Source of the DNA: Alphaproteobacteria bacterium
GTDB taxonomy: Bacteria; Pseudomonadota; Alphaproteobacteria; UBA828
Assembly (NCBI GenBank): GCA_963667785.2
Contig: CAXXMU010000001.1
Coordinates: 1-64,000 of the forward strand
Direction: 5' to 3'
Length of the DNA stretch: 64,000 nucleotides
Positions 2,994 to 27,244 of the stretch are shown piece by piece. The translations under genes were made by a program, and so were the position numbers. Position 1 is the stretch's first letter; each line of letters opens with the position of its first letter. Below the pieces are notes generated by a model. It saw nothing but the letters and a program-made list of their open reading frames with translations, was not told the DNA's origin and made no database searches.

Positions 2994-3374
2994 TCAGGGC
3001 GCGCCGCGGACGTAGCGCCGGGCGACGCCGGGGGCGATGGCGAGGCGGGCGGCGACCTCCGCCGGGGTCGCGCCGGCGGCGGCGAGGTGGATGGCGCAGG
3101 CACGCCTGGCGCGGGGCAGGTAGACGCTGCAGCCGCCGAGATAGTCCGCGACCTTGAGCGCGGTCCCTTCCGCCTCCAGCAGGCGGGCGAGCGGGTGATC
3201 CGGATGGCGGGCGAGGTGGCGCGGCTTGGGGATGTGAACCTCGCGGCCGCCCCAGGCCAGCGCCATCCTGATGGCGGTCTCCTTTCCCGCGACGCCGGCG
3301 ATCTCGTCGAGGACGCCGGGAAGGGCGCGGTCACAGGCATTCATGTCAGCGATATCGTCTCTGCCTCGGCTCAC
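2994..3374 (-). CDS. Mor/C-family transcription activator
   Basis: LPGVLDEIAGVAGKETAIRMALAWGGREVHIPK...LGGCSVYLPR plus C-terminal HTH; last gene of the early operon. Start may be 3344. Confidence 0.8.
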   Translation of the reverse strand: MSRGRDDIADMNACDRALPGVLDEIAGVAGKETAIRMALAWGGREVHIPKPRHLARHPDHPLARLLEAEGTALKVADYLGGCSVYLPRARRACAIHLAAAGATPAEVAARLAIAPGVARRYVRGAP

Positions 3375-3419
3375 GTGCGCGCCCGCTCGTGCCGTCCCCG
3401 TCCCGGACGGTCGAGGCGG

Positions 3420-4148
3420 TCACTCACCGGTCGAGGCGAACGGATGGGGGTACGCCGCGGGTCGCGCTTCGCGACGGCCGAGCCGCTTCCTGCGCTTCTT
3501 CCAGGGGGCTTCGGCCGTCTTCGTCCCGTCTCCGTGGCGGGCTTCGAGCGCTGCCCGCAGCCGCTTGCCGAGGTGGCGGATCAGCGCGTCGGCCTGAGAA
3601 TCGGTGAGCGCGAGGTGCGAATCGAGGCGCTCGAGGCCGGCGTGGCGGGCGGCATAGGCGCCAAGCGCGGCGACGCTGCCGATGCGAACCAGACCGCGGC
3701 GGTGGAGCAGGCGCCACTGCGCCTCCAGCACCCGGGCGCGGGGGTGGCGCGTCTCCCGCACCCGGCCGTCGCGGCCGAGGGAGAGGTGCGGCCGCCAGTC
3801 CACGCCTGCGGCACGTGCGAGCCAGGCCTCGAGCGCGCGGGCGGCGCCGGCGAGATCGGCGGACGCCGCGCCGGTATCGGTGTCGAGGCCTGTCCGGCGG
3901 CTGACCCACTCCCCGAGCGCCTCGTCCGAGCGCTCGCGTGCGATACCCAGATGGAAGGCGCTGATCCAGAGCGCCCGCAGCTTGCGCGTGGCCGGCCCTG
4001 CGGGGAGGGCCGGGCCGTCAGGCCCGGACGGCGCGACTGCGCGTCGCACGTCCACGTGCGCAGGCGCACGATGCGCCGATAGGCGCGTAGCCAAGCTCGC
4101 GGAGCGAGCGCCCGGCGCCTGAGGGATATGAATGAGTCGTTCCGTCAT
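3420..4148 (-). CDS. Mu GemA/gp16-like regulatory protein; N-terminus contains an in-frame repeat
   Basis: RKLRALWISAFHLGIARERSDEALGEWVSRRTG...ALEAWLAR motif; sits between gam and mor. Confidence 0.75.
   Translation of the reverse strand: MTERLIHIPQAPGARSASLATRLSAHRAPAHVDVRRAVAPSGPDGPALPAGPATRKLRALWISAFHLGIARERSDEALGEWVSRRTGLDTDTGAASADLAGAARALEAWLARAAGVDWRPHLSLGRDGRVRETRHPRARVLEAQWRLLHRRGLVRIGSVAALGAYAARHAGLERLDSHLALTDSQADALIRHLGKRLRAALEARHGDGTKTAEAPWKKRRKRLGRREARPAAYPHPFASTGE
4006..4126 (-). repeat. Repeat family B copy inside the gemA 5' region
   Basis: TCCCTCAGGCGCCGGGCGCTCGCTCCGCGAGCTTGGCT...TCGCGCCGTCCGGGCCTGACGGCCCGGCCCT matches 19889-19980. Confidence 0.8.
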
Positions 4149-4690
4149 GCCGCTTCCGCCGGGCTTGTATCGTCGAGCAGGGCGACGAGGATGCCGTCGA
4201 GCTCGCTCCGGGCCGTCGCGATGGTCACCTCGTCCGTCGCCCTCTCGACGGTAACGCCGATCTGCGCGAGCTCCGCGGCGGTGAGCTTGCGCAGCGCCTG
4301 GCGGTCGAGCGTCTCCCGCACCCGGATCAGCGCCTCGGCCCGCTCGGGGAAGCGCGCGCGAAGCCGCCTGATCGCCTGCGCCTCGTCGCCGAGCGCGACG
4401 GCGCCCGGCTGCTTGCGCAGGCCGAACCTGACGCCGTCGATGGCCACCGAGCGCGGGCGGACGAAAAGATCGGGCCGGGCCCGGATCGCCTCGCGCAGCG
4501 CCTCCTCGGCCGCCGCCTGCTCGGCAACGCGGCTGCGGAGCGCACGCAGCCTGCCGCTGAGCGCCTTGCGCTGCAGCGCCCGGATGTCGTCCGCCAGCGC
4601 CTCCGTCGCCTCCCGCGCGGCCGCGAAGACCCGGGCGAGGGCGACGATCTCCTGCATGGAGTCCGGCAACTGCGGAGCCGGTCGAGTCAT
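4145..4690 (-). CDS. Mu Gam-like DNA end-binding / host-nuclease inhibitor protein
   Basis: Coiled coil followed by LFVRPRSVAIDGVRFGLRKQPG...LIRVRETLDRQALRKL; AAGGAGGA RBS upstream. Confidence 0.75.
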   Translation of the reverse strand: MTRPAPQLPDSMQEIVALARVFAAAREATEALADDIRALQRKALSGRLRALRSRVAEQAAAEEALREAIRARPDLFVRPRSVAIDGVRFGLRKQPGAVALGDEAQAIRRLRARFPERAEALIRVRETLDRQALRKLTAAELAQIGVTVERATDEVTIATARSELDGILVALLDDTSPAEAA

Positions 4691-4739: not shown

Positions 4740-5000
4740 TCATGCCGCGCCCCGGTCGTCGTCGGCGCGCGCGGCCGGGCGGGGAATGCCGGCGGGCCAG
4801 GGGAGGCCGGCGGGCCAGCGCTCGGACGCGCGGCCCAGGATGGCCTCGGCCCGGCGCGCGGTGACGCTCATCCCGGCAGCGATGCGGTCCACCGTGTCGC
4901 CGCTGCCGGTGAGTAGGCGCGAGGCGTAGGAGACGGAGATGCCGCGGGCCGCCGCATATGTGCGGATGAGGGTGACGAGGAGTTGATCGCTGTGCACCAT
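4740..5000 (-). CDS. Cro/Ner-like small HTH regulator (86 aa)
   Basis: MVHSDQLLVTLIRTYAAARGISVSYASRLLTGSG...WPAGLPWPAGIPRP; divergent from the cI-like gene across a 74-bp AT-rich gap. Confidence 0.75.
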   Translation of the reverse strand: MVHSDQLLVTLIRTYAAARGISVSYASRLLTGSGDTVDRIAAGMSVTARRAEAILGRASERWPAGLPWPAGIPRPAARADDDRGAA

Positions 5001-5075
5001 TAAACATATATGCACGATAACGCATAGACGAATCAAGCACTTTTCTGCACGATCGTTTGTGCTATATTGTGCACA
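4991..5075. promoter_or_regulatory. cI/cro switch region with three 18-bp imperfect palindromic operators
   Basis: TGTGCACCATTAAACATA (4991-5008), TATGCACGATAACGCATA (5009-5026), TGTGCTATATTGTGCACA (5058-5075). Confidence 0.7.
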
Positions 5076-5998
5076 TGTCGAGTCGGACCCGACCGAGCGA
5101 GCAGATCCGCCGCGCCGTGCGCGACGCGCTGGAGGCGGCGGGCGTGGGCGCGCGGCGCTTCGAGGCCGCGCATGGTCTGCGGCCCTGGGCGCTGCGCGGC
5201 ATTCTCGACCCGACCCGCCGGCAGGCGCCGTCGGTGGACCGTGCGGCCGAGATCTGCGCCGCTCTCGGGCTCTCGCTTTCCATCGGCCCGCCCGGGGAGG
5301 CGCGCGCATCCGCTCCGTCACCCCTGCCGCCCGCAACCGGCGTGAGGGCGTTGCACGAGCCCCGCGTCGACGATCCGTCCGGCGCTCCGCCCAAGGCGGG
5401 TGCTGCCGCGCGAGGCGGCCTCTCGCCCGCCGCGCTGCGCGATCTGGAGGCGGGCGCGCAGGCCCTGAACCGGCTCGTCACCGGTGCCGGCGGCGATCCG
5501 ATTCCGGACGAGCTGCGGACGGCGCCGGGTGCCAGCTTCGGCGGTTCCGACGCGCGGCCGGTCGCGGCGGCGAACGAGGACAGCGTGCCCCCCGCCGCAC
5601 GCTCGGTGGGGACGCGCGAGGTCGAGGCTGCGGCCGGCGGCGGGGCGGTCAATCTCGACGAGGCGCCGGTCAAGGGGCCGGTCTGGTTCAGGCGCGACTG
5701 GCTCGACGACCACGGCATGGACCCGACACGCTGTGTGGTAATTTCCGTGCGGGGCGAATCCATGGAGCCGACCCTGCCCGCCGGCACCAAGATCCTGGTG
5801 GATCGGGATCGCACCCGTCGCCGCGCCGGGCGCATCTTCGTCGTCAGCACCGGCGAGGGCCTGGTGGTCAAGCGGCTGGACCGGCGCGGGCGGCAGTGGT
5901 TTCTTGTCAGCGATCACCCGTCCTGGGCGGAGGTTCCCTGGCCGCGCGAGGCGGAGGTGATCGGCGAGGTGCGCTGGGCCTCCCGCACCTTCGAATGA
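5075..5998 (+). CDS. CI/LexA-like repressor, N-terminal HTH + S24 autopeptidase
   Basis: APSVDRAAEICAALG HTH; AAAGGG cleavage-site region; VRGESMEP (catalytic Ser) and VVKRL (Lys) intact. Confidence 0.9.
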   Translation: MSSRTRPSEQIRRAVRDALEAAGVGARRFEAAHGLRPWALRGILDPTRRQAPSVDRAAEICAALGLSLSIGPPGEARASAPSPLPPATGVRALHEPRVDDPSGAPPKAGAAARGGLSPAALRDLEAGAQALNRLVTGAGGDPIPDELRTAPGASFGGSDARPVAAANEDSVPPAARSVGTREVEAAAGGGAVNLDEAPVKGPVWFRRDWLDDHGMDPTRCVVISVRGESMEPTLPAGTKILVDRDRTRRRAGRIFVVSTGEGLVVKRLDRRGRQWFLVSDHPSWAEVPWPREAEVIGEVRWASRTFE

Positions 5999-6033
5999 GC
6001 CGGCGCGGGCCGGCATCGGCAGGGAGGAGCGCC

Positions 6034-6597
6034 ATGCGAGCATTGATCGTCGGCGTCGCGCTCGCCGCACTCGCCGCCTGCGCCGCGCCCACCCACATCG
6101 AGGGCCACCGCATACGCGCGGTCGAAGGGCCCGGCGCCGGGCCGGCGCTGCGTGCCGACGATCTGCACGCAGGCGCGCCGGCGTGGTTCGCGGACTGGTG
6201 GGCCAAGTATCTGCGCCAGGCGCGGCGCGGCTATGCCGTGCTCGCCCTCGACCGCAATGGGCTGGGCGGCTGGTACGTCTACTGCGCTCCCGGCCGCTGC
6301 CAGAGCCTGGCCAATCCCTGGTCCCGCTCGGTCAAGGACGTCTACTACAAGCACCACGCTCTCCAGCTCTGCCGTGCGGAGGTCGCGGCGGCTCATCCCG
6401 GCGCCCGGCCCGACTGCGCCCTCTACGCGATCAGGTCGAACATCGTCTGGCAGGGTCCGCCCCCCTGGGAGGGCGCCGGCGCGCTCGCGGCGAGCACGGG
6501 GGCGCGCCCGGCGCTGGGCTCGACCTACCAGACGGACGGCGACGGCCTGGAAATCGGTCTGTTCGGCCTCAACTTCATCTTCGGAATCGACCCGTAG
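6034..6597 (+). CDS. Hypothetical lipoprotein downstream of the repressor
   Basis: GGGAGGAG RBS; MRALIVGVALAALAAC lipobox; several Cys. Confidence 0.7.
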   Translation: MRALIVGVALAALAACAAPTHIEGHRIRAVEGPGAGPALRADDLHAGAPAWFADWWAKYLRQARRGYAVLALDRNGLGGWYVYCAPGRCQSLANPWSRSVKDVYYKHHALQLCRAEVAAAHPGARPDCALYAIRSNIVWQGPPPWEGAGALAASTGARPALGSTYQTDGDGLEIGLFGLNFIFGIDP

Positions 6598-6623: not shown

Positions 6624-6676
6624 CGCACCATGGTCCGGTGGCCGGCGCCGGCGCTCGCCGGCACCATGGCGCCATG
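6624..6676 (+). promoter_or_regulatory. Putative late promoter 1 (activator box + -10)
   Basis: CGCACCATGGTCCG box, then GGCA 25 nt after the ACCATGGT core, then GCGCCATG; same layout as 10155-10208. Confidence 0.6.
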
Positions 6677-6750
6677 CGTCACGCGTCGGCCGGCAAGCAC
6701 GCCCGTCTCCGCTCTCGGCGGCCGCAGGGGCCGCGGCAGGGCAGGGGACG

Positions 6751-8103
6751 ATGAGCGGGTACACCCTGCTTCCCTATCAGGCACGCTGGGTCTCGGACGG
6801 CGCCGGGTTCAAGGTGATCGAGAAGGCGCGCCGTATCGGCATCTCCTGGGCCGAGGCCTACGGCGCCGTGGTGCACGCGGGCAATCGCGGCGGCGGCAAC
6901 GTCTACTACCAGGCCTACAACCTGGAGATGACGCGCGGCTTCATCGAGGACTGCGCCCGCTGGGCGAAGGCGCTGGAGATCGGCGCCACCCGCCTCGGCG
7001 AGACCCTGATCGCGGATGGCCCGCGCGGCCTCCGGGCCTTCCGCATCGCGCTGGCCTCGGGCCGCGAGATCCTCGCCATGACGAGCACGCCCCGGGCCTT
7101 CCGCTCCAGAGGCCGGCCCGGCGACCTCGCCATCGTCGACGAGGCGGCCTTCGTCGACGATCTCGGCCAGGTGCTCAAGGCGGCGATGGCGTTCCGGGTC
7201 TGGGGCGGGCGGGCGCACGTCATCAGCACCCACAACGGCGAGGCCAACCCCTTCGCAGTCCTCTGCGGCGACCTGCGCGAGGGCAGGCGGCCAGGCACGC
7301 TCCACCGCGTCACGCTGAAGGAGGCGCTGGCCGAGGGCCTCTTCCGCCGCATCTGCGAGGAGAGAGCGCAGCCCTGGTCCGCAGGCGCCGAAGCCGCGTG
7401 GGAGGCGGCGCTCAGGACGGAATACGGAACCCATGCGGGCGAGGAGCTCGACTGCATTCCCGCTGCTGGTGCCGGCGCCTGGCTCGGCTGGGACGCGATC
7501 CGCACCTGCGAGCATGCGGCGGCGGGCGATCCCGCCGCCTTCGCCGGCGGCACCGCGACCATCGGCGTGGACGTGGCGCGGCGCCGCGATCTCTGGGTGG
7601 CGGCCGTGCTCGAGCAGGTGGGCGACGTGCTGTGGCTGCGCGAGCTGGTGACCCGACGCGCCATTCCCTTCAGCGCGCAGCGGGCGCTGGTCGGCGCGCT
7701 CGCCGCCCGCTACCGCCCGGCGCGCATCGCCGTCGATCAGACCGGCATGGGCGAGGCGGTGGTGGAGCAGCTTCAGGAGGAGCTCGGCAGCGCAACGGTC
7801 GACGGCGTGCTGATGACCGGGCCGCGCCGTCTCGACGCGGCGACGGCGCTGCGCGAGGCGGTGGAGGACCGCAGGCTGCGCCTCCCGGCGGACGCCGATC
7901 TCAGGCGCGACCTGCATGCGGTCCGCGCCGAAGCGGGGCCGACGGGCGCGCCCCGGCTGATGGCGGAGCGTTCCGCCACGGACGGCCATGCCGATCGCTT
8001 CTGGGCGCTCGCGCTCGCCTGCGCCGCCGCCCGCACCGGCAGCCCGAGGGTCGAAGGCATCGCCGCCCGCCGCCGTGCGAGCGGGCTCGTCGACTTCTTC
8101 TGA
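6751..8103 (+). CDS. Terminase large subunit, Mu gp28 type
   Basis: LLPYQ, EKARRIGISW (Walker A), IVDEAAF (Walker B), ISTHNG, IGVDVAR, VDQTGMG, HADRFWALALA all intact. Confidence 0.93.
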   Translation: MSGYTLLPYQARWVSDGAGFKVIEKARRIGISWAEAYGAVVHAGNRGGGNVYYQAYNLEMTRGFIEDCARWAKALEIGATRLGETLIADGPRGLRAFRIALASGREILAMTSTPRAFRSRGRPGDLAIVDEAAFVDDLGQVLKAAMAFRVWGGRAHVISTHNGEANPFAVLCGDLREGRRPGTLHRVTLKEALAEGLFRRICEERAQPWSAGAEAAWEAALRTEYGTHAGEELDCIPAAGAGAWLGWDAIRTCEHAAAGDPAAFAGGTATIGVDVARRRDLWVAAVLEQVGDVLWLRELVTRRAIPFSAQRALVGALAARYRPARIAVDQTGMGEAVVEQLQEELGSATVDGVLMTGPRRLDAATALREAVEDRRLRLPADADLRRDLHAVRAEAGPTGAPRLMAERSATDGHADRFWALALACAAARTGSPRVEGIAARRRASGLVDFF

Positions 8104-8122
8104 GAGAGGGTTGTCGGTCGCC

Positions 8123-9010
8123 TCAGCGATCGGCGAGGAAGGCCAGGATCTCCCGAACCGTATCCTCGGGCGCTTCCTCGGGCAGGAAGTGGCCGCAGGG
8201 CAGCGCGCGGCCCTGCACGTCCTCGGCGCGCTCGCGCCAGCTCTCCAGCACGTCGAGGGACCCGCCGGTCTGCCAGCCCGGCCGCCGGGCCATGTCGCCT
8301 GCCCAGAGCACCAGCATCGGGCAGGCGATACGCCGGCCCCGGTCCGCCTCGTCGTGGACGAGATCGAGCTGGATGGCGCGGTAGTCCAGGCACATGCAGC
8401 GCAGCGTCTCGGGATCGCTGAAGCAGCGGAGATAGTCGGCGTAGGCCTCGGGCGTGATCGCGCCGGCGACGGCGCACCACTGCGCCAGCAGGAAGTCCAG
8501 GAAGAGCTTGGGGCTGTTGCCGATCAGAGTCTCCGGGAAGGGCGCCGGCTGGCGCATCAGGTGCCAGTGGAAGAACGAGAACGCGAGGTCGCGGTCCATG
8601 TTCTCGAAGACCGCCTGGGAGGCCACCACGTCGAGCGAGGTGAAGGTGCGGACTTGCGCGGGATGGTCGAGCGCCATGCGATGGCCCACGCGGGCGCCGC
8701 GGTCGTGGCCGACGACGTGGAAGCGATCGAAGCCCAGCGCCGCCATCACCTCCACCTGGTCCCGCGCCGAGGCGCGCTTGCAGTGGTCCTCCAGCTCGTC
8801 GGAGGCCGGCTTGCTGCTGTCGCCGTAGCCGCGCAGGTCGGGCGCCACGACCGTGTAGTGCGCGGCGAGAGCGGGCGCCGCCTTGTGCCACATCACGTGG
8901 TTCTGCGGATAGCCGTGGAGCAGGAGGAGCGGCGGGCCCGCGCCGCCGGTCACCAGGTTGATGGCGGCGGACGAGGTCTCGATGCGGGTTCCGGTGAAGC
9001 CTTCGAACAT
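8123..9010 (-). CDS. Alpha/beta hydrolase, haloacetate/fluoroacetate dehalogenase family
   Basis: LLLHGYPQNHVMWH, PDLRGYGDSSKP, VGHDRGARVGHR, CGHFLPEEAP. Confidence 0.9.
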   Translation of the reverse strand: MFEGFTGTRIETSSAAINLVTGGAGPPLLLLHGYPQNHVMWHKAAPALAAHYTVVAPDLRGYGDSSKPASDELEDHCKRASARDQVEVMAALGFDRFHVVGHDRGARVGHRMALDHPAQVRTFTSLDVVASQAVFENMDRDLAFSFFHWHLMRQPAPFPETLIGNSPKLFLDFLLAQWCAVAGAITPEAYADYLRCFSDPETLRCMCLDYRAIQLDLVHDEADRGRRIACPMLVLWAGDMARRPGWQTGGSLDVLESWRERAEDVQGRALPCGHFLPEEAPEDTVREILAFLADR

Positions 9011-9120
9011 GCCTGGTTTACCCGTCGTCGGTGGGCGCGTCGCGGGCCGAGAATAGTTGCTCCGCCTGCCCGGAGCGAGAGCCCGGCTCCTCAGGCAGGC
9101 GCCTGCCCGGTGCCGCCGGG

Positions 9121-19885: not shown

Positions 19886-19888
19886 TGT

Positions 19889-19991: not shown

Positions 19992-20393
19992 ATGACGAGT
20001 CCCCACCACTGGACCGAGGCATGGCTCGGGCGGGCGTGGAAGGCCGGCGAGCACGACTGCGCCGACTTCGTGGTGGCGGTCCTGCGCGAGCAGTTCGAGA
20101 TCGCCCTCGACCTGCCGGCCCACGCCGCGAGCGCGCGCGGCTGGGATCGCCAGATCGCCACGCTCAAGGGCGACTATGCCTTGCCGACGATCTCGCCCCG
20201 CGACGGTGACGGCGTGCTCATGCACGCACGCGGCGCACGGCGCCTGCGCCGCTATCACCTCGGGCTCTGGGCCGGAATCGAGGGCGAGGCGCATGTGCTG
20301 CATTGTCAGGAGGCGGCCGGCTCGATCCTCCATCCCATCCGCGACCTCGGCCAGCGCGGCCTCGCGCTGGAGGGGATCTACCGGTGGCGGTAG
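19992..20393 (+). CDS. NlpC/P60-family tail protein
   Basis: WLGRAW..HDCADFV, YHLGLW, HVLHC catalytic motifs. Confidence 0.85.
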   Translation: MTSPHHWTEAWLGRAWKAGEHDCADFVVAVLREQFEIALDLPAHAASARGWDRQIATLKGDYALPTISPRDGDGVLMHARGARRLRRYHLGLWAGIEGEAHVLHCQEAAGSILHPIRDLGQRGLALEGIYRWR

Positions 20394-20401
20394 GGAAGAA
20401 C

Positions 20402-20612
20402 ATGACCGCCCTCATGCAGCGAAGCGGTAGGGCGGACATAGTCACCGCCGATCTCTGGCCGCATCCGCTGACGGCTGCTGGCCGCGAGACGCGGGTTGCC
20501 GCGATTCGGCCGGAGATGACGCTCGCCGATCTGATCGCGGAGATGCTCGGCGCCGACATCCCACGCGCGTCCGCGCTCAAGCAGCGAAGCGGTAGCGCGG
20601 ACGCGCCCATAG
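20402..20612 (+). repeat. Two in-frame family C hairpins in the fibre gene 5' end
   Basis: ATGACCGCCCTCATGCAGCGAAGCGGTAGGGCGGACATAG (20402-20441) and TCCGCGCTCAAGCAGCGAAGCGGTAGCGCGGA (20570-20601). Confidence 0.75.
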
Positions 20613-23600
20613 ATGCCATGATCGACGGCCGGCCGGTGGCGCGGGCGGCCTGGGCGACCACGCGGCTCCGGCCGGGGCAGATCGTCACCCTGCGGGCTGT
20701 CGCCGGCGACAGCGGCGGCGAGAAGAACCCGCTCCGCACCGTCCTCCAGCTCGCGCTGATCGTCGCCACCATCTACGTGCCGCCGCTGATCACCTCCAGC
20801 CTGCTCGGGCAGGCGGCGATCGGCGCCGCCATCGCCGTCGGCGGTGGGCTCGTCATCAACGCCATCGCGCCGCTGGAGCTGCCTGTGCCGGAGGCGGCGG
20901 CGCAGCCCGAGCCGCTCTACAGCCTCACCGGCGGTGCCAACCGGGCGCGCGCTTATGAGCCGCTGCTGCTGGTGCTCGGCGAGCACCGCGTCTTCCCCGA
21001 TCTCGCGGCGGCCGAGTACACCGAGATCGACGGCGAGGACCAGTACCTCCACCAGATATTCAACTTCGGCCTGGGCGACCTCGACCTGGACCCGCTCAGG
21101 CTCGGCGAGGCCGCCCTTGCCGACTACGAGGAGGTGGAGACCGAGTGGGCCGACGCGGCCGGCCGCATCGCGCTGGTCGCCGGCAACGTGGACACCGAGG
21201 CCGGCGCGGCGCTTGACGATACCGCCTTCGTCGCCCGCGTCACCGGGGCGCGGACGCGGCGCATCGGCATCGACATCGTCGGCCGGCTCTTCCGCGTCAC
21301 CGATCGCGGCGGGGTCGAGGAGCAGGCCGTCGAGATCGAGATCGAGTGGGAGGCGCCGGGGCACGCGGTCGAGCGGCGCACGGTCGAGCTCAGGAACGCG
21401 AGCCAGAGCGGCCTGCGCCGCACGCTTACCTACGAGCTCGGCGCCGAGGCGCAATGGACCGTGCGGGTGCGGCGCACCGCCGATCCGAGCGACAACGACC
21501 GCATCTACGACGACCTCGCCTGGGCGGCGCTCCGCTCCTACCAGCCGGACGAGGCGGACTATGCCGGCCAGACCCGCCTCGGCGTCCGCATCCGCGCTTC
21601 CGGCCAGCTCGCCGGCCGCCTCAATCGCCTCTCGGCCGTGGTGCGCCAGAAGGTGCCGACCTGGGACGGCGCCGACTGGACGCAGCCGCAGCCCTCCTCC
21701 AATCCCGCCTGGATCTTCCGCTGGTATGCGCGGGGCGTCTTCGTCGGCGGCCGCCTCGTCGCCGGCGCGGGGCTCGCGCCGGAGCGGATCGACGACGCGG
21801 CGCTCATCGCCTGGGGCGCCTGGTGCCAGGCGCAGGGGCTCCGCTGCGATCACGTGATCGACCGCGCGGTCTCCCACGCCGAGGTGCTGGCGCTGATCGC
21901 CCGCTGCGGCCGCGCCGCCGTCACCTGGCAGAGCGGCAAGCTCGGCGTCATCTGGGACGCGGAGGGCCGCCCGGCGACGGCGCTGGTCACGCCCGGCAAC
22001 ATCGTCGCCGGCTCCTTCCGGGTCGAGTACGCCACCGGCAAGGCGGCCGAGGAGGTCGTGGTCCGCTACCGCGAGCCCGCGCTCGACTGGCAGTACAACA
22101 CGCTGCGCCGCTCGGTGCCGGGGCTCATCGGCGCGCCCGCCTCCAGCGCCACGGTCACGCTGCCCGGCGTCACCGGCCGCGACCAGGCGGCGATGGCCTG
22201 CAACCTCCAGGTCGCGCGCCAAGTCTACCACCGGCGCCGGCTCATGTGGGAGATGGCGGCCGAGGGCTTGGCGCTCGCGCGCGGCGACGTGGTGCATATC
22301 ACGCACTCGCTGATCGACGGCGGCGCCGCCGGCCGGCTCACGGGCGGCACGGCAGGCCGTGTGACCCTCAATCGCCCGGTCGATCCCGGCGCCGATCCGC
22401 GCCTGCTGCTCAGGCTGCCCGACGGCACGCTGCACCAGACGGCGGTGACGCGGCCGCCGGGCATCCCCGGCGAGACCGCAGAGCTGGTGCTGGCGGACCC
22501 GCTGCCGGCAGCCCCCGATGCCGACGGCGCCAGCCCGCTCGATATCCTCTGGCGCTTCTACGACGAGGCGCTGCCGCCGGTGCGCGCCCGCATCATCGCG
22601 GTGCAGCCGCGCGGCGACCGTCATGTCCGCTTCGTCGCCATCGACGAGGTGGACGCCTACTACGCACTCGCGACGAGCGATCTCAGCGCGCCCTTCCCGG
22701 ATATCGTGTCGCGCACACCCCGCGTGCTCGCCGTGGCCTTCGCGCCCCGCCGGGTGCAGGTCGGCCGCGGCACCATGACCGAGCTGGAGGCGACGCTCAC
22801 CGTCGCCGGCGACTGGCGCGGCGCCACGGTGCGGGCCGGGCCGAGCTTCGCCGAGCTCGCCGTCGTCGCCCGCCTGGTGGACGGCGCCACCGTGGCGCGC
22901 TGGCTGGTGCTGCCGGAGACCGGCCAGGCGGTCGAGATCGTGCCGGGCTCCGAGGCCGCGCCCGCCGGCCCGCGCTTCCGCACGACCTGGATGCTGGAGC
23001 CGGGCCTCGCGCCGGCGCCGCCTACCGATCTCGCCGTGCGCGAGCACGAGGACGGCACCCGCATCTATAGCTGGACGCCGCCCGCGGCGCCGGACCTGGA
23101 GGGCGTGGTGCTGCGCTACGCCGTCGACCCGGCCGCCGTTTGGGCCGACATGACGCCGCTGCATGCGGGCTTCCTCACCGCCTCGCCGCTGGAGGCGCTG
23201 GAGCCCGGCGCCGGCACCTGGACTGTCGCGGCCCGCGCGGTCTCGACGTCGGGCCTCGAATCGGAATCGGTCTCGGTGCGCGCCACCTTCGGCGGCCAGC
23301 GCATCGGCGGGCAGCGCTGGCACGTCGTCGCCGGCCTGCCGCCGGCCTCCCTCGGCGCCGACGGCGACTTCGCGCTCCGCACCGACACGAACGCCGTCTA
23401 CGAGAAGCGGGCGGGTGCCTGGGTCGAGATCGCCGATCTCTCCGGCGCCGACGGCGCGCGCTGGCATGTCGGCGCCGGCGCGCCGCCTGCCTCCCTCGGC
23501 GCGGACGGCGACTGGTACTTCCGCACGTCGAACGCCGGCATCTATCGCAAGGCCGGCGGCGCCTGGGCCTTCCAGCTCGACATCGACGGCGTCGACGGCG

Positions 23601-26413
23601 CCACCTGGCACGGCGGCACCGGCCCGCCGGCGGCGGGCCTGGGCCGGGTCGGCGACTGGTACTTCCGCACCGACAACGGCTTCATCTACGAGAAGACCGG
23701 CGCCGCCACCTGGACCTTCCGTCGCGACATCACCGGGCCTCAGGGCATCGCCGGCGCGACGTGGCTCTCCGGCTCGGGCGCGCCTGCGGCCGGCCTCGGC
23801 GCCGACGGCGACTTCTACCTCGACGAGGACGATGCCTCGGTCTGGCGCAAGGCGGGCGGGGCCTGGGCGGCGGTCGCGAGCCTCGCCGGCGCCGACGGCG
23901 CCACCTGGCACACCGGCGCGGCCGAGCCGCCCGCCTCCCTGGGCGAGGACGGCGACTGGTACTTCCGCACGACCAACGCCGGCATCTATCGCAAGATCGC
24001 CGGCGCCTGGACCTTCGAGCTCGACATCGACGGCGCCGACGGCGCCACCTGGCACGGCGGCACCGGCCCGCCGCCGACCGGCCTCGGCGAGGTGGGAGAC
24101 TGGTACTTCCGCACCGACAACGGCTTCGTCTACCTCAAGACCGGCGCGGCCACCTGGACCTTCCAGCGCGACCTCACCGGCGAGCAGGGCGAGCCCGCGA
24201 GCCGGGGGCCGAACGTCTACCACTATCTCGTCTCGGCGCTGGAGCGGGCGCAGCTCGAAGCGGCTGGGAGCGTGCTGCCGGCGGCCTTCGTGGCGATCGC
24301 CGACGGCGAGACGGTCGGCGAGAACGTGGACGGCGACTGGATTCGCTTCTGGCGCCCCGGCTTCAACTCCTGGTGGAGCTGGGGAGCGGCCGCGAGCGCC
24401 TGGCGCAAGGCGGAAAACTGGATCGGCGCCGCCGACATCGACGCGGTGAACGTCCGCGCGATCAGCGGCGACTTCCGCGACCTGAACGTGACCGGCACTT
24501 TCAGCGCGGCCAATCTCGACCTCGGCGAGGGCCTGGCGGAGGAGGGCGGGCAGCTTCGCGGCGCGCGCCTGCTCTGGACCGGGAGCCAGGCCCTCGGCAC
24601 CACCGCGCGCGCGTTCGCGCTGGCGGAGCCGGCGGCGGCCTTCGGCGCCTTCCTCGTCTATTCCAGCGCCGGCATGCACGGCTTCACCGGGCGGGCGGGC
24701 CAGTCCAACGGCGTCACCGCCGGCGCCTCGGGCGGCGACCTGACGCTGCGCGTGCCCAACGCCTCGATCAGCGTCACCGTCATGGGCATCATCGGCTTCC
24801 GCGGGACGACGAGCGCGACGCCGCCGCCACCGCCACCGTCCCTGCCCGACGCCGACGCCCCGCGCGTGACGATCGCCGCCGTGACCTCGGTGGACGAGGA
24901 CGACACGCAGGTGCTCTCGGCTTCAGTGAGCGGCGGCACCTACGACACGCTCGAGTACGCCTGGAATGTCGAGTCCGGCGGCGGCTCGATCACCGGCTCG
25001 GGCGCGAACGTCACCTACGATCCGCCGGACGTGAGCGCCGATACCGCCGTCGTCGTGCGCTGCATCGTCACCGCGCGCGGCACCGGCACGAACGCCGAGA
25101 GCGGCACCAGCGACCAGGCGAGCGATACCGAGGGCTTCACCGTCAACCATGTGGCGGACCCGCCGCCGCCGCCGATGCTGCCCGATGCCGCTGCGCCGGC
25201 GGTCACCATCGCCGCCGTGGGCTCGGTGGACGAGGACGCGACGCAGGCGCTCTCGGCCAGCGTCTCGGGCGGCACCTACGACGAGCTGAGCTACGCCTGG
25301 GCGGTGGACTCCGGCGGCGGCTCGATCTCGGGCTCCGGCGCGAACGTGACCTACAACCCGCCGGACGTGACCGCAGACACCGCCGTCACCGTGCGCTGCA
25401 CCGTCACCGCGCGCGGCACCGGCACGAACGCCGCGACCGGCACCAGCGACACGGCCACGGATACCGAGGCCTTCACCGTCAACGTCGTCACCGCCCCGCC
25501 GGACCCGCCCGACCCGCCGATGCTGCCCGACGCCGAGGCGCCGGCGGTGACCATCGCCGCCGTGGGGTCGGTGGACGAGGACGCGACGCAGGCGCTCTCG
25601 GCCAGCGTCTCGGGCGGCACCTACGACGAGCTGAGCTACGCCTGGGCGGTGGACTCCGGCGGCGGCTCGATCTCGGGCTCCGGCGCGAGCGTGACCTACA
25701 ACCCGCCGGACGTGACCGCCGACACCGCCGTCACCGTGCGCTGCACCGTCACCGCGCGCGGCACCGGCACCAACGTCAAGGACGGCACATCCGACACGGC
25801 GAGCGATACCGAGGGCTTCACGGTCAACGTGGTGCTGCCCGCTGCCGACGCGCCGGCGGTGACCATCGCTGCCGTGGGCTCGGTCGACGAGGACGCGACG
25901 CAAGCGCTCTCGGCCAGCGTCTCGGGCGGCACCTACGACGAGCTGAGCTACGCCTGGGCGGTGGACTCCGGCGGCGGCTCGATCTCGGGCTCCGGCGCGA
26001 GCGTGACCTACAACCCGCCGGACGTGACCGCCGACACCGCCGTCACCGTGCGCTGCACCGTCACCGCGCGCGGCACCGGCACCAACGTCAAGGACGGCAC
26101 GTCCGACACGGCGAGCGATACCGAGGGCTTCACCGTCAACGTCGTGCGGACGGCGCCCGGCGCCCCGCGCAATGTCGCCGTCACCGTCACCGACGCCGGC
26201 AAGGGCCAGTTCAGCTACGCCGCCACCTGGGACGCGCCCGCCGACTGGGGCAGCGGCGCGAACCGCCGCTACGGCCGGCGCCGGACCCCCGGCGGCGAGC
26301 AGAGCGACACGAACGACACCTCGTGGAGCTTCACCGCCAACAGCAGCGGCATCGCCGTCGATATCCGGGCCGAGACCGACGACGGCGAGAGCGCATGGGA
26401 GAGGGCGAGCTGA
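20402..26413 (+). CDS. Central tail fibre / TipJ-like host-specificity protein with repeats, Ig-like domains and FN3
   Basis: YSLTGGANRARAYEPLLLVLGEHRVFPD, SNPAWIF and GDVVHITH J-type core; six ~49-aa repeats; four ~104-aa Ig-like repeats; C-terminal APGAPRNV..WDAP. Confidence 0.88.
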   Translation: MTALMQRSGRADIVTADLWPHPLTAAGRETRVAAIRPEMTLADLIAEMLGADIPRASALKQRSGSADAPIDAMIDGRPVARAAWATTRLRPGQIVTLRAVAGDSGGEKNPLRTVLQLALIVATIYVPPLITSSLLGQAAIGAAIAVGGGLVINAIAPLELPVPEAAAQPEPLYSLTGGANRARAYEPLLLVLGEHRVFPDLAAAEYTEIDGEDQYLHQIFNFGLGDLDLDPLRLGEAALADYEEVETEWADAAGRIALVAGNVDTEAGAALDDTAFVARVTGARTRRIGIDIVGRLFRVTDRGGVEEQAVEIEIEWEAPGHAVERRTVELRNASQSGLRRTLTYELGAEAQWTVRVRRTADPSDNDRIYDDLAWAALRSYQPDEADYAGQTRLGVRIRASGQLAGRLNRLSAVVRQKVPTWDGADWTQPQPSSNPAWIFRWYARGVFVGGRLVAGAGLAPERIDDAALIAWGAWCQAQGLRCDHVIDRAVSHAEVLALIARCGRAAVTWQSGKLGVIWDAEGRPATALVTPGNIVAGSFRVEYATGKAAEEVVVRYREPALDWQYNTLRRSVPGLIGAPASSATVTLPGVTGRDQAAMACNLQVARQVYHRRRLMWEMAAEGLALARGDVVHITHSLIDGGAAGRLTGGTAGRVTLNRPVDPGADPRLLLRLPDGTLHQTAVTRPPGIPGETAELVLADPLPAAPDADGASPLDILWRFYDEALPPVRARIIAVQPRGDRHVRFVAIDEVDAYYALATSDLSAPFPDIVSRTPRVLAVAFAPRRVQVGRGTMTELEATLTVAGDWRGATVRAGPSFAELAVVARLVDGATVARWLVLPETGQAVEIVPGSEAAPAGPRFRTTWMLEPGLAPAPPTDLAVREHEDGTRIYSWTPPAAPDLEGVVLRYAVDPAAVWADMTPLHAGFLTASPLEALEPGAGTWTVAARAVSTSGLESESVSVRATFGGQRIGGQRWHVVAGLPPASLGADGDFALRTDTNAVYEKRAGAWVEIADLSGADGARWHVGAGAPPASLGADGDWYFRTSNAGIYRKAGGAWAFQLDIDGVDGATWHGGTGPPAAGLGRVGDWYFRTDNGFIYEKTGAATWTFRRDITGPQGIAGATWLSGSGAPAAGLGADGDFYLDEDDASVWRKAGGAWAAVASLAGADGATWHTGAAEPPASLGEDGDWYFRTTNAGIYRKIAGAWTFELDIDGADGATWHGGTGPPPTGLGEVGDWYFRTDNGFVYLKTGAATWTFQRDLTGEQGEPASRGPNVYHYLVSALERAQLEAAGSVLPAAFVAIADGETVGENVDGDWIRFWRPGFNSWWSWGAAASAWRKAENWIGAADIDAVNVRAISGDFRDLNVTGTFSAANLDLGEGLAEEGGQLRGARLLWTGSQALGTTARAFALAEPAAAFGAFLVYSSAGMHGFTGRAGQSNGVTAGASGGDLTLRVPNASISVTVMGIIGFRGTTSATPPPPPPSLPDADAPRVTIAAVTSVDEDDTQVLSASVSGGTYDTLEYAWNVESGGGSITGSGANVTYDPPDVSADTAVVVRCIVTARGTGTNAESGTSDQASDTEGFTVNHVADPPPPPMLPDAAAPAVTIAAVGSVDEDATQALSASVSGGTYDELSYAWAVDSGGGSISGSGANVTYNPPDVTADTAVTVRCTVTARGTGTNAATGTSDTATDTEAFTVNVVTAPPDPPDPPMLPDAEAPAVTIAAVGSVDEDATQALSASVSGGTYDELSYAWAVDSGGGSISGSGASVTYNPPDVTADTAVTVRCTVTARGTGTNVKDGTSDTASDTEGFTVNVVLPAADAPAVTIAAVGSVDEDATQALSASVSGGTYDELSYAWAVDSGGGSISGSGASVTYNPPDVTADTAVTVRCTVTARGTGTNVKDGTSDTASDTEGFTVNVVRTAPGAPRNVAVTVTDAGKGQFSYAATWDAPADWGSGANRRYGRRRTPGGEQSDTNDTSWSFTANSSGIAVDIRAETDDGESAWERAS
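23306..24190 (+). repeat. Six intragenic ~49-aa repeats arranged ABC-ABC (444-bp period)
   Basis: GAxWHxGxGxPxxxLGxxGDWYFRT; Trp codons at 23318/23762, 23462/23906, 23606/24050. Confidence 0.9.
24842..26146 (+). repeat. Four tandem Ig/PKD-like domains, copies 2-4 nearly identical in DNA
   Basis: Units start at 24842, 25178, 25523, 25835; APAVTIAAVGSVDEDATQALSASVSGGTYDELSYAW. Confidence 0.92.
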
Positions 26414-26964
26414 TGGAGGTGCTGCGCAGCCACGAGATCGTCGCCGATCGGGAGCCGACGGCGGGGAAGATCGCGGTGCGCGTCCTCTGGGCCTACCAGG
26501 ACGCGGTGCTGATCGAGTGCGCCACGCCGGTCGGCGCGGCGGCCGCGATGGCGCACCCGAACCCGCCGAGCGGCTTCTCGACCGCCTACGTGCTGGCCGG
26601 CTCCTACCGCGCCACCGTGGGCACAGGCGGCAGCGCCAGCGGAGCGGCGCACGTCGAGACGGTCGCGGCGGGCGGCTTCAACCACGACGACCGCGAGACC
26701 TGGCCGGCGGGCGCGCCGGTGACCTACGAGGCCCATGCCGGCACCCGCTGGCGCTGCTTCCACCAGTCATGGCTGGCGCCGTCGCGGGCGGTGCAGTCCG
26801 TCCACGAGGCCCCGGCGACGATCGCCCTGCCGGCGGGCGGCCTGCTCGCCGTGATCGGCGGCGAGACCGACGCCGCAGACGGCACCTTCGTCCTGCGCAC
26901 GGACGAGGGCGCGACGGTCACGCTCACGCGCGGCTGGGCATGGCTCACGGCGCCCGCAGCGTGA
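26413..26964 (+). CDS. Hypothetical beta-rich protein coupled to the fibre gene
   Basis: TGATG overlap with the fibre stop; 183-aa open frame with host-like codon pattern. Confidence 0.65.
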   Translation: MEVLRSHEIVADREPTAGKIAVRVLWAYQDAVLIECATPVGAAAAMAHPNPPSGFSTAYVLAGSYRATVGTGGSASGAAHVETVAAGGFNHDDRETWPAGAPVTYEAHAGTRWRCFHQSWLAPSRAVQSVHEAPATIALPAGGLLAVIGGETDAADGTFVLRTDEGATVTLTRGWAWLTAPAA

Positions 26965-26995
26965 CGAGCGCGGCCACACCACGAGGAGGAAGACG

Positions 26996-27244
26996 ATGGC
27001 GAGCAGGAAGGCGGCCAGGCCGCAGACCCTCACCCTGGCCGAGCTGATCGAAGGCGCGCGCGCCTATCTGGCTCAGGCGAGCGAACGGGTGGTGGGGCTT
27101 GAGGACACCGGGGCTCCCGGCCGCCACGATCTGACCATGATCGAGGTGGCCCGCGACGAGGTGCGCGAGGCCGCCAGGCTCATGCGCCGCGTCCACGACC
27201 GCGCCGCCAGGGCCGCCCGCAGGGCGCCCAAGGGCGGTCGCTGA
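26996..27244 (+). CDS. Hypothetical small helical protein (82 aa)
   Basis: GAGGAGG RBS; last ORF of the cluster. Confidence 0.55.
   Translation: MASRKAARPQTLTLAELIEGARAYLAQASERVVGLEDTGAPGRHDLTMIEVARDEVREAARLMRRVHDRAARAARRAPKGGR

Follow-up and report, generated by a model that had tools for sequence, protein, structure and literature searches.

An immobilised B3-like prophage split between dps and atpH, a candidate GTA-like particle system in one alphaproteobacterial genus

The window analysed here, a stretch of 64,000 nucleotides, is the start of contig C1 of an alphaproteobacterial genome designated G000, the relatives being coded in the same way (G002, G003, etc.). ORFs were called from the GC3 signal and then submitted to PHROG and Pfam scans, which identify 24 phage-type ORFs at positions 2994-27244 (Table 1). 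Their order is that of the annotated genome of Pseudomonas phage B3, in keeping with a first-pass annotation made from the letters alone, which had counted about 25 phage-type genes in B3/RcapMu-like order. Mor, GemA, Gam, and the phrog_7669 gene lie on the minus strand. The plus strand carries in its 5' part the CI-like HTH+Peptidase_S24 repressor, orfX, TerL, the protease, the scaffold, the major capsid protein, and an unknown gene, followed by the adaptor, Neck1, the tail terminator, the major tail protein, the chaperone with a second-frame extension, and the tape measure, and lastly by four distal-tail genes, the J-like protein, and two small ORFs. The nearest phage capsids are B3-like, with ~39% amino acid identity, and the Mu/B3-type hallmark set (Mor/GemA/Gam, TerL, portal, protease, scaffold, and capsid) is present in B3 order, the portal lying outside the window on contig C8. 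Inside the window, PHROG and Pfam scans report no transposase, MuB, TerS, portal, or gpF, as had been noted from the letters.

Table 1. Genes and other features of the locus, in window coordinates, with the evidence for each assignment
Feature	Positions	Strand	Evidence and remarks
Dispersed host repeat	2086-2239	.	blastn against own genome; present in dozens of copies across the genome; adjoins dps, immediately outside the element
dps-like gene	2316-2810	-	bounds the regulatory module in every species
Mor-family late transcription activator	2994-3374	-	phrog_836 (E 3.6e-12), PF08765; dN/dS 0.19
GemA-like gene	3420-4148	-	PF06252
Dispersed host repeat between Gam and GemA	4004-4139	.	blastn against own genome
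Mu Gam-like DNA-end-binding protein	4145-4690	-	phrog_491; PF07352 below cut-off; dN/dS 0.29
phrog_7669 gene, first of early operon	4740-5036	-	PHROG match; relatives' synteny
Divergent CI/early control region	4990-5075	.	AT-rich, repeated TGCAC boxes
CI-like repressor, HTH + Peptidase_S24	5057-5998	+	phrog_4, PF00717; dN/dS 0.23
orfX, lipoprotein-like, signal with LAAC	5995-6597	+	conserved after CI in relatives
TerL upstream motif variant, 3 mismatches	6625-6643	+	late-promoter-like
26-codon upstream ORF	6674-6754	+	starts 30 nt after motif; stop overlaps TerL ATG (ATGA)
Large terminase TerL, Mu gp28 type	6751-8103	+	PHROG terminase families, PF17289; dN/dS 0.245
Alpha/beta hydrolase, non-phage	8123-9010	-	PF00561; orthologues at unrelated loci in relatives
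Homocysteine S-methyltransferase (HMT), non-phage	9121-10047	-	PF02574; orthologues at unrelated loci in relatives
Late-promoter-like motif GGACCATGGTGCGATGCAC upstream of protease	10156-10174	+	<=1 mismatch in 16/16 loci
28-codon upstream ORF	10206-10292	+	starts 31 nt after motif; stop overlaps protease ATG (ATGA)
Head maturation protease, Mu gpI type	10289-11383	+	phrog_976 (E 2.5e-45)
Scaffolding protein	11380-11736	+	phrog_673; dN/dS 0.15
Major capsid protein, Mu gpT/B3 type	11747-12721	+	phrog_1005 (E 1.9e-68); dN/dS 0.095
Gene in B3 ORF39 position, C-terminus variable	12725-13690	+	position; relatives' alignments
Head-tail adaptor	13687-14088	+	phrog_195
Neck1 / tail completion protein	14211-14660	+	phrog_26
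Tail terminator	14657-15160	+	PF23840; dN/dS 0.13
Major tail (tube) protein, non-contractile tail	15157-16047	+	phrog_807
Tail assembly chaperone	16044-16605	+	phrog_1442; frame analysis
Tape measure protein, 256 aa	16618-17388	+	PF09718; long tape-measure PHROGs (C-terminal)
Two distal-tail genes	17385-17759, 17778-18170	+	phrog_384, phrog_240, PF23140
Minor tail protein g18203, C-terminal DUF1833	18203-19885	+	phrog_396, PF08875
Dispersed host repeat, intergenic spacer	19888-19980	.	blastn against own genome
Small NlpC/P60-like protein g19992 (HDCADF...H)	19992-20393	+	sequence reading
J-like central tail tip protein, 2009 aa	20384-26413	+	phrog_31 (E 1.6e-95), PF24801, PF13550
Two small ORFs before atpH	26395-26964, 26996-27244	+	second ORF in 3 relatives
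atpH, host gene	27484-28041	+	bounds the structural module in every species; synteny in relatives

The regulatory module adjoins dps in 9/9 relatives fetched, and a DNA search for the dps-like gene returned no match in the element-free genome G011. GemA orthologues are alignable only from residue 42-48 onward, and the true start of this gene is probably near 4019-4055. Since the phrog_7669 gene abuts Gam, there is no room for the transposase genes A/B. Alignment of the divergent CI/early control region indicates that it is nearly invariant across 10 species. The CI-like protein contains the segments GESMEPTL and VVKRL, which we take to be the Ser/Lys dyad motifs of the S24 peptidase, and TerL contains AIVDEAAF and, downstream, Asp motifs, presumably the characteristic terminase motifs, so that the catalytic motifs initially described as intact can be read in both proteins. 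The orfX gene corresponds in position to the lipoprotein ORF22 of phage B3, and the ensuing TerL is full length as compared with its paralogues and exhibits 79-80% amino acid identity to its orthologues.

Downstream of TerL, the hydrolase and HMT genes sit exactly at the position expected for the portal and gpF. These two reverse-strand metabolic genes (8123-10047) had been overlooked by the first-pass annotation, which described the portal and lysis modules as cleanly missing. This description is true of the window only: contig C8, the end of which overlaps the window start, carries the portal orthologue (C8:115040-116299) and, at C8:121637-123094, a lysis-like cassette including lysA and lysB. 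The G000 portal is devoid of the last 43 residues found in relatives and stands alone amid metabolic genes; a Mu portal occurs once per genome in 5/5 relatives searched. Among the remaining modules, gpF was found neither in 5 relatives nor at the G000 locus, and the transposase search proposed together with that description returned a Mu transposase core (Pfam DDE_2) in 1/5 relatives, at an unrelated site, and at one other site in G000. No complete TerS adjoins TerL in G000, and no gp27 does so in the genomes searched, except for a partial copy in G002. The TerS gene beside TerL has been lost or reduced to a remnant, and MuA/MuB and gpF are absent. Elsewhere in its genome, G000 carries other Mu-like elements.

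An assembly artefact hiding a complete prophage might be suspected, as the window begins at a contig end and several Mu-like repeats in the genome break the assembly. The probability of such an artefact is nearly negligible, because contigs from two other studies bridge the orfX-TerL and HMT-protease junctions, the same deletions are found in complete single-contig relatives, and the C8/C1 overlap is clean, within one gene; the arrangement of the window thus withstands the doubt raised about it at the outset.

In the tail module, the coding signal of the chaperone changes frame near 16420-16470, as in G/GT-type chaperones. The tape measure, first described as cut to 256 residues, has this length and matches only the C-terminal parts of families of 900-1500 residues; the length is conserved in 14 genomes, and carriers have a tape measure of ~250 residues versus 1099 in phage B3. 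Protein g19992 did not return any library match (PHROG, Pfam), and its HDCADF...H segment is taken as an NlpC/P60-type motif; the NlpC Cys/His assignment therefore stands as a reading of the motif in a protein devoid of a Pfam match. Residues 1-975 of J are conserved, while its C-terminal half is variable and contains in-frame tandem repeats with periods of 144 bp and 345 bp. The claim that repeats are tolerated only in frame-preserving form applies to these, but the host repeats at 4004-4139 and 19888-19980 are intergenic.

The lysA, portal, and protease genes are each preceded by a 19-nt motif that contains a dyad and is followed, 30-31 nt further on, by an ATG; the motif shows at most one mismatch at 11/11 lysA loci and 9/9 portal loci. 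Before TerL, a weaker variant (3-4 mismatches) is found at 9/11 loci, one with a single mismatch in G018, and none in G002. Both TerL and the protease are preceded by ATGA-coupled upstream ORFs. The motif also occurs in ~20 non-coding-looking dispersed repeats and is therefore not exclusive to the element. It precedes, moreover, dispersed orphan TerS-like genes (14/14 copies in G003), which are found in 7/7 carriers searched and in 0/3 element-free genomes, the genomes compared being kin. These genes are multi-copy (14-15 in G003), with ~0.75-1.25 kb in common at 80-93% identity, and both G000 orphans are missing from the syntenic sites in relatives. Such multi-copy, motif-bearing units could be selfish mini-elements that exploit the particle for their own packaging, the cluster persisting thereby as a helper. 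We consider this very improbable: the name of a Pfam family is the sole functional clue for the TerS-like genes, kinship among the genomes makes the association statistically weak, and exploitation by itself does not explain selection on the cluster.

Orthologues are found in 16/20 other genomes of the genus, beside dps or upstream of atpH, the two genes between which the first-pass annotation had proposed to look for clusters, and are single-copy; the capsid gene in these 16 genomes is stop-free, single-copy, and 90-93% identical at the amino acid level. It is found in 0/23 genomes from 9 other genera of the family. Close strains are present in runs labelled sponge metagenome. The structural module is directly upstream of atpH in 12/12 relatives whose contig reaches this gene, while G011, G015, and G016 display an empty site, with atpH joined to orthologues of G000 C8:103-105 kb. 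The phage was acquired upstream of atpH by an ancestor of most of the genus. Later rearrangements split the element, in ways that vary between species, into regulatory, lysis-like, TerL/portal, and head-tail units: more than 1 Mb separates its parts in G003, while they lie on different contigs in G004 and G008, span ~45 kb in G000 versus 38.4 kb for the phage B3 genome, and are nearly contiguous in G002. The losses of MuA/B, gpF, and TerS and the short tape measure probably predate species divergence, since they are common to all carriers examined. The first-pass proposal that the element cannot replicate or move and is host-retained agrees with this same set, devoid of MuA/B and gpF, at the same host positions in most species.

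The structural module is nevertheless broken in 7 of the 13 genomes in which it is fully visible. The protease, scaffold, and capsid N-terminus are deleted in G003, and the tail genes in G005 and G012, both of which keep the protease, scaffold, capsid, and J. Both the terminator and Gam of G008 carry insertions of 4.4 kb, the head genes of G013 are relocated as a block and its adaptor is missing, and three tail genes are deleted and the protease is interrupted in G020. The seventh, G018, is the closest relative by atpHA identity and has lost most of the element through a deletion from Mor to J. Apart from these seven, TerL is interrupted in G007. Variable degradation in close relatives, named beforehand as grounds for abandoning the idea of a host-retained particle, is thus partly observed.

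Pairwise dN/dS ranges from 0.10 to 0.53 over 24 element genes (21 of them in the window, the others being lysA, lysB, and the portal on C8), far below 1, the value proposed beforehand as the mark of relaxed constraint, although such pairwise estimates are averages over the entire history and do not reveal whether a gene functions at present. Median values are 0.095 for the capsid, 0.15 for the scaffold, 0.18 for the portal, and 0.245 for TerL among head and packaging genes, 0.13 for the terminator, 0.19 for the tube, 0.33 for the tape measure, and 0.45 for J among tail genes, and 0.19 for Mor and 0.23 for CI. The host genes atpA and atpH display 0.085 and 0.17, with dS similar to that of the element. 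For most element genes, the alignment consists of one full-length match, with 20-30% nucleotide divergence. A slowly decaying defective prophage, functionless now, on which selection acted only in part of the time or of the genes and of which the G000 copy is a relic, would account for the broken modules, the three empty sites, and the near-total deletion in G018, as well as for the truncated and isolated G000 portal and the invasion of the cluster by host genes and dispersed repeats, and the high GC content leaves frames open by chance. We regard this explanation as unlikely, though deserving serious weight: constraint extends to all 24 genes, with a capsid as constrained as atpA, the motif is invariant at the lysA, portal, and protease units (weaker at TerL), and the CI/early control region has hardly changed.

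Partial co-option without any complete particle is a second possibility, whereby CI would confer immunity against Mu-like phages, Gam would protect DNA ends, or capsid, protease, and scaffold would form a compartment. The other Mu-like elements of G000 are possible targets of immunity, the regulatory module was present in every relative fetched, and G005, G012, and the relocated head block of G013 illustrate head genes kept or moved apart from tail genes. Yet constraint also extends to the tail tube, terminator, chaperone, and tape measure (dN/dS 0.13-0.33), TerL and the portal are single-copy and retained under the same motif, and a Mu transposase core elsewhere is missing in 4/5 relatives, which leaves little to be immune against. 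Partial co-option therefore appears improbable.

Head genes and tail genes yield the same tree, which departs from the atpHAGD tree only in where a single taxon is placed. The host topology is nevertheless rejected by the tail data (AU p 0.005), a 9-taxon test was rejected in both directions, and J disagrees with all the other trees (p below 1e-5), so that the expected congruence with the host tree holds approximately for heads and tails but not for J. This discordance, together with the long, variable, and repeat-rich C-terminus of J and the short, conserved tape measure, would suit a tail-only bacteriocin (F-type tailocin) or an adhesion device. Such a device is hardly credible, as the strongest constraint falls on head and packaging genes, which argues against a tail-only function. 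Tailocin clusters are not known to carry head and packaging genes, and the element does not belong to the F-type tailocin class, its capsid, scaffold, protease, portal, and TerL all being retained.

Most of an ancient B3-like (Mu-type) siphovirus prophage, now immobilised, thus appears to lie in the window; it would have been vertically inherited and mostly kept by purifying selection. We give a probability of roughly 0.55 to its being a domesticated, multi-locus, probably SOS-inducible GTA-/PBSX-like particle system, known here from its genes. The core of the first-pass proposal, an immobile and host-retained element of transposable-phage origin distinct from RcGTA, is supported. In the mechanism that we propose, DNA damage would lead to self-cleavage and inactivation of the CI-S24 repressor, the early operon (Gam, GemA, Mor) would then be expressed, and Mor would activate the dispersed late units via the common motif, which may act as an activator site with its centre near -43.5 relative to leaderless transcripts. 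Assembly of capsids and of short, non-contractile tails would follow, TerL would fill the heads with chromosomal DNA, the cut ends of which may be protected by Gam, and the lysis cassette would release the particles. The orphan TerS-like genes under the common motif may supply packaging specificity. A single headful may well be unable to carry all parts of the element, in which case the product would be a GTA-like or PBSX-like particle and not a virus. A more detailed version, in which an independent GTA from a Mu/B3-type phage forms a scattered single regulon with a CI-S24 SOS switch and Mor, a shared leaderless promoter, and packaging specificity passed to mobile one-gene TerS-like units, is put forward tentatively and is doubtful as a whole; if true, DNA transfer would begin at many defined chromosomal sites.

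The element is a candidate for a new, independently evolved GTA-like particle. To our knowledge, GTAs have arisen independently in no more than a few known cases, none of them from a transposable phage, and a full-text literature search found neither a Mu-derived GTA nor such an element among domesticated prophages or tailocins. If the element is active, a Mu-type phage can become a host-owned DNA-packaging particle, phage-type regulation (repressor and Mor) can be kept rather than replaced by host control, and a virion regulon can stay coordinated after its break-up because each relocated unit bears the same promoter-like element. The coexistence of intact and freshly broken copies in one genus offers a way to date and measure the keeping and loss of such elements.

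In RcGTA, the tape measure is short, the distal-tail set includes an NlpC-like peptidase together with a Phage-tail_3 tip protein, and control is of the host CtrA type. The distal-tail set of the window resembles it in its short tape measure, NlpC-like protein, and Phage-tail_3 tip domain. RcGTA-like elements, the subject of two studies (PMC5026251, PMC5721377), are transmitted vertically and constrained by purifying selection, occupy several loci, and are often incomplete in some lineages. Likewise, the present element comprises a phage-derived head-tail set devoid of autonomous replication and integration functions (no transposase or MuB in the window), and is multi-locus, vertically inherited, and constrained, with losses in several lineages. 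In contrast with RcGTA, its TerL, portal, protease, scaffold, and capsid belong to Mu/B3-type families, its nearest relatives are B3-like phages, and it retains a scaffold and phage-type control (CI-S24, Mor, GemA, Gam); it is limited to one genus, unlike the RcGTA-like clusters of Alphaproteobacteria. It is not a member of the RcGTA family, since its best families and nearest phages are of the Mu/B3 type and only generic distal-tail domains are common to both.

With phage B3 (Beetrevirus) and RcapMu-type siphoviruses, the element shares a module-for-module order including Mor, GemA, repressor, lipoprotein, lysis, TerL, and portal to tail tip. It differs from phage B3 by its much shorter tape measure, its fixed chromosomal positions, its split loci, and the lack of transposase A/B with the neighbouring early genes, of gpF, and of a complete TerS beside TerL. 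Of the hallmarks of Mu-like transposable phages, the DDE transposase A and the ATPase B are absent from the element, and gpF and TerS (gp27) from its late operon. PBSX of Bacillus forms one contiguous locus, has a contractile tail, and reportedly packages host DNA when the SOS response is induced. Both are chromosomal, non-transmissible phage remnants that combine a repressor switch with genes for structure and lysis, the particle being predicted from gene content in our case, but they derive from unrelated phage lineages in different host phyla, and the present loci are split and their tail genes non-contractile. Defective prophages of enterobacteria were reportedly found, in the original study, to be vertically inherited under purifying selection. 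According to the concept of domesticated defective prophages (PMC8987985), mobility functions are deleted while the remainder persists at orthologous sites with a dN/dS below 1. The present element stands apart from domesticated prophages in general by its transposable-phage origin and by a nearly whole virion and packaging set that is retained genus-wide and dispersed with a common promoter-like motif.

The assembly of the source genome G000 comprises 4.09 Mb in 14 contigs, and the window corresponds to the initial 64 kb of its contig C1. The G+C content reaches 73-76% across 3-27 kb, against ~68% in the flanks, and since raw ORF lists are unusable at such values, genes were called from third-position G+C before families were assigned by PHROG and Pfam scans. 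The resulting order is the annotated order of Pseudomonas phage B3, and the nearest phage capsids are B3-like, with ~39% amino acid identity to that of the window. The catalytic motifs reported by the first-pass annotation are visible in the translations, GESMEPTL and VVKRL in CI, AIVDEAAF in TerL, and HDCADF...H in g19992 (ORFs being named by start coordinate), which we take to be S24, Walker B, and NlpC signatures, respectively. The short tape measure aligns with long tape-measure families over their C-terminal ends alone, that of phage B3 being annotated with 1099 residues; as a rule of thumb, a non-contractile tail of ~40 nm would be predicted from its 256 residues. An NCBIfam scan returned nothing meaningful for the lysis-like genes lysA, lysB, and lysC, nor for orfX, the phrog_7669 gene, g12725, g17385, g18203, g19992, and g26395. 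Repeats had been described as tolerated only in frame-preserving form; this applies to the tandem arrays inside J, the J-like tail tip protein (periods of 144 bp and 345 bp), but two copies of a dispersed host repeat lie in intergenic spacers, the one at 4004 because GemA orthologues align from residue 42-48 on. Dozens of copies of this repeat are spread over all large G000 contigs, and it also occurs in relatives. The gene at the contig join matches a 570-residue orthologue in two frames within the window, which may reflect a frameshift or a sequencing error.

Features of the element and related loci in G000 (window coordinates unless a contig is named)
Feature	Position	Strand	Remarks
Gene at contig join	3-1374 + C8:132245-132640
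Dispersed host repeat	2086-2239; 4004-4139; 19888-19980		in or beside the element
Mor	2994-3374	minus	PHROG/Pfam
GemA	3420-4148	minus	PHROG/Pfam
Gam	4145-4690	minus	PHROG/Pfam
phrog_7669 gene	4740-5036	minus	PHROG/Pfam
CI-like HTH + Peptidase_S24 repressor	5057-5998	plus	PHROG/Pfam
orfX	5995-6597	plus	lipoprotein-like
TerL motif	6625-6643
26-codon upstream ORF	6674-6754		ATGA overlap with TerL start
TerL	6751-8103	plus	PHROG/Pfam
Alpha/beta hydrolase	8123-9010	reverse	metabolic, in portal/gpF slot
Homocysteine S-methyltransferase	9121-10047	reverse	metabolic, in portal/gpF slot
Protease motif	10156-10174
28-codon upstream ORF	10206-10292		ATGA overlap with protease start
Protease	10289-11383	plus	PHROG/Pfam; followed by scaffold
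Major capsid	11747-12721	plus	PHROG/Pfam; 3' of scaffold
Unknown gene, adaptor, Neck1, tail terminator, tube protein		plus	after capsid, in this order
Chaperone		plus	3' of tube protein; second-frame extension
Tape measure	16618-17388	plus	256 aa
Four distal-tail genes		plus	between tape measure and J
J-like protein	20384-26413	plus	2009 aa
Two small ORFs		plus	3' of J, before atpH
atpH	27484 (start)	plus	host gene ending the module
Portal	C8:115040-116299		83% aa to relatives' single portal
lysA-lysB-lysC	C8:121637-123094		three-gene lysis-like cassette
Second Mu-like element	C1:187861-212251
B3-ordered Mu-like prophage	C6:~497000-517000
Portal copies of equal score	C5:1-6400		C5 start
Extra Gam/GemA copies	C6:~1191000-1205778		near C6 end
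Orphan TerS-like genes	C6:55529-56137; C6:83290-83964	+; -
Motif-headed repeats (examples)	C1:343200; C1:547822; C2:678448; C5:190564; C6:638013; C8:37676

The portal and gpF had been considered cleanly missing. Instead, their slot holds two metabolic genes, orthologues of which lie at unrelated loci in all relatives. Elsewhere in G000, contig C8 carries the portal and the lysis-like cassette, whereas gpF and a transposase are found only with other elements. The C8 portal, orthologous to that of the relatives, is devoid of its last 43 residues and stands isolated among TRAP-transporter, amidase, and FAD-enzyme genes. Regarding the cassette, which comes after CI-orfX in relatives, lysA belongs to DUF5675 and displays invariant H-x6-D and H-x-H residues, presumably those of a LAS peptidase, lysB (phrog_6637) gives a weak holin match, and lysC a weak DUF2730 match. 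A profile search of lysA against sequences of solved structures returned only noise (E 0.46), and its lysis assignment is based on the B3-relative position, DUF5675, the weak holin match of its neighbour, and the invariant residues. As the end of C8 overlaps the start of C1 within one gene, the parts of the element cover ~45 kb in G000, with host-like genes interspersed.

Other Mu-like elements of G000 account for four further Mu-type portals, four matches to gpF, and a single Mu transposase. The second Mu-like element of C1, whose capsid is 82% identical to that of the window, does not match Pfam DDE_2, the core of the Mu transposase, has its head genes inverted relative to its TerS-TerL-portal-gpF block, and bears a variant, GGACCATGGTCCCGTGAAC, of the promoter-like motif described below. 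The sole Mu transposase of G000 belongs to the C6 prophage. As repeats, this prophage, the portal copies on C5, and the Gam/GemA copies on C6 probably break the G000 assembly. An assembly artefact had been raised as an explanation for the missing modules. Contigs from runs of other studies span two junctions at 95-99% identity, orfX-TerL (X3 record 19, from a run labelled sponge metagenome) and methyltransferase-protease (X3 record 21 and X5 record 29), but only X1 and X2 contigs span the TerL-hydrolase junction; they show 0 differences, may stem from the source sample, and are not independent.

DNA searches located pieces of the element, with 71-90% identity, in nearly all same-genus genomes, and the loci were then compared by tblastn. 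Orthologous clusters at dps and atpH are found, split into modules whose placement differs between species. The head-tail module lies directly 5' of atpH in all 12 relatives whose contig extends to that gene (G002, G003, G004, G005, G007, G008, G010, G012, G013, G018, G019, and G020), and the dps-Mor-GemA-Gam-phrog_7669 genes with the CI-orfX-lysABC genes form a module in 9/9 relatives fetched. TerL adjoins the portal in eight of the nine relatives with both genes located, with a ~2-kb gap in three of the eight (G003, G004, and G013); the G003 gap encodes a 456-residue protein with RTX calcium-binding repeats (L021:9748-11115). The modules are >1 Mb apart in G003, on separate contigs in G004 and G008, and almost contiguous in G002 and G018, yet in another arrangement again. 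Among five relatives examined, each has a single portal, none has gpF, and one has a Mu transposase core (DDE_2), at another genomic site. The tape measure is ~250 residues long in all 14 genomes where it is seen. Capsid orthologues (90-93% amino acid identity, single copy, no stops) occur in 16 of the 20 other genomes of the genus and in 0/23 genomes from nine other genera of the family. G011, G015, and G016 exhibit an empty site, atpH adjoining orthologues of G000 C8:103-105 kb. In atpHA, moreover, no genome is more distant than these (85-86% nucleotide identity vs 88.7-92.5% for carriers), which would fit a single gain. G011 contains two atpHA copies (C2:1450-3583 and C6:3726464-3728564; 89% and 86% to the window), one on a 15-kb contig, and may be a mixed bin. 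In a different family of the same order, G028 possesses the tube, tape-measure, distal-tail, and J genes of a related tail module (42-58% amino acid identity; C7:60001-80000, L083), not beside its atpH.

Selection was assessed from medians of Nei-Gojobori pairwise values, each gene being represented by 3-16 genomes, after dropping matches below 85% query coverage, hostA, hydrolase, methyltransferase, lysC, g26395, g26996, and J past residue 975. Median dN/dS values of the element genes range from 0.095 to 0.53, far below the value near 1 that the first-pass annotation named as counter-evidence: capsid 0.095, terminator 0.13, scaffold 0.15, portal 0.18, tube, chaperone, Mor, and lysB 0.19 each, adaptor 0.21, CI 0.23, TerL 0.245, Gam 0.29, lysA 0.30, tape measure 0.33, protease 0.36, J (residues 1-975) 0.45, orfX 0.49 (n=3), and g18203 0.53. 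The host genes atpA, dps, hostB, and atpH give 0.085, 0.11, 0.15, and 0.17; median dS is 0.29-0.39 for host and 0.30-0.69 for element genes. In-frame stops in the compared stretches number five in the protease, three in lysB, and one each in GemA, g19992, and lysA, the protease, lysA, and GemA queries having been extended too far 5'. Pairwise dS and dN of host and element correlate positively (Spearman 0.49-0.94), a weak result from 4-8 taxa only. Head and tail trees of six common taxa, compared with atpHAGD and J by AU test, share an identical topology, from which the atpHAGD tree departs only in the placement of G013. The test rejects neither the head/tail tree on the host data (p 0.059-0.066) nor the host tree on the head data (p 0.135), but does reject the host tree on the tail data (p 0.005), and the J tree conflicts with all others (p <1e-5). 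A 9-taxon test including J was rejected both ways, and splitting the data by gene group identifies J as the main source of conflict. We read these results as descent that was for the most part vertical, the tip protein having undergone either exchange or strong diversification.

Variable degradation in close relatives had been named as evidence against a host-retained element. Among 13 genomes with the whole structural module visible, it is broken in seven (G003, G005, G008, G012, G013, G018, and G020) but intact in five (G000, G004, G007, G010, and G019); in G002, g12725 is missing and g18203 is without its first 409 residues. In G001, G006, G014, and G017 the contig stops inside the module, all visible genes being full length, and the TerL of G007 is split by ~5 kb. 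The many recent breakages and the truncated G000 portal make a decaying relic a serious rival to a functional particle, albeit one we consider rather unlikely.

Aligning upstream regions revealed a 19-nt late-promoter-like motif, G[GC]ACCATGGTGCGGTGCAC, containing the 12-nt dyad GCACCATGGTGC. It is found with at most one mismatch 5' of lysA (11/11 loci), portal (9/9), and protease (16/16), and as a weaker variant 5' of TerL (3-4 mismatches in 9/11 loci; G018, 1 mismatch; G002, none). An ATG follows 30 nt past the motif, or 31 nt for the protease. Were transcription to start at this ATG, the dyad centre would fall at -43.5; Mor and C of phage Mu bind around -43.5, and by analogy the dyad may be a Mor/C-type activator site. 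The CI/early intergenic region is almost invariant across 10 species. The motif is not exclusive to the element: G000 contains 40 sites with at most two mismatches, 35 of them with an ATG at +30 and the majority inside dispersed repeats of 350-550 bp, and 146 sites with at most four mismatches vs 16 in the reversed sequence. About 20 such repeat copies, 350-550 bp long and non-coding-looking, are headed by motif, 30-nt spacer, and ATG, and may represent either miniature elements that carry a promoter or gene units in decay.

TerS-like genes, counted as Pfam Phage_Mu_Gp27 matches, number five in G000 (two of them orphans), three in G002 (one a partial copy immediately 5' of TerL), 15 in G003, six in G004, nine each in G007 and G010, one in G018, and none in the element-free G011, G015, and G016. 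The alternative family DUF1804 gave no match, in control genomes either, and is hence uninformative. The motif is present at both G000 orphans and at all 14 fetched G003 loci (L084-L097), 13 of which have their ORF beginning at the +30 ATG; the G003 copies share ~0.75-1.25 kb at 80-93% identity. Both orphans are absent at the syntenic sites of relatives and appear to behave as small variable insertions.

The element is thus real, immobile, and chromosome-inherited in most of one genus, its scattered units have one promoter-like element in common, and purifying selection has acted on it through most of this inheritance. Together, these features support domestication, with a particle as the best reading. 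Full-text literature searches (GTA, Mu-like, sponge symbiont, domesticated prophage, tailocin) returned neither a Mu-derived GTA nor this element; passages of PMC13626063 mention GTAs and tailocins in illustrating domestication in general. The best single reading, with a probability of about 0.55, is that of a predicted GTA-like or PBSX-like DNA-packaging particle.
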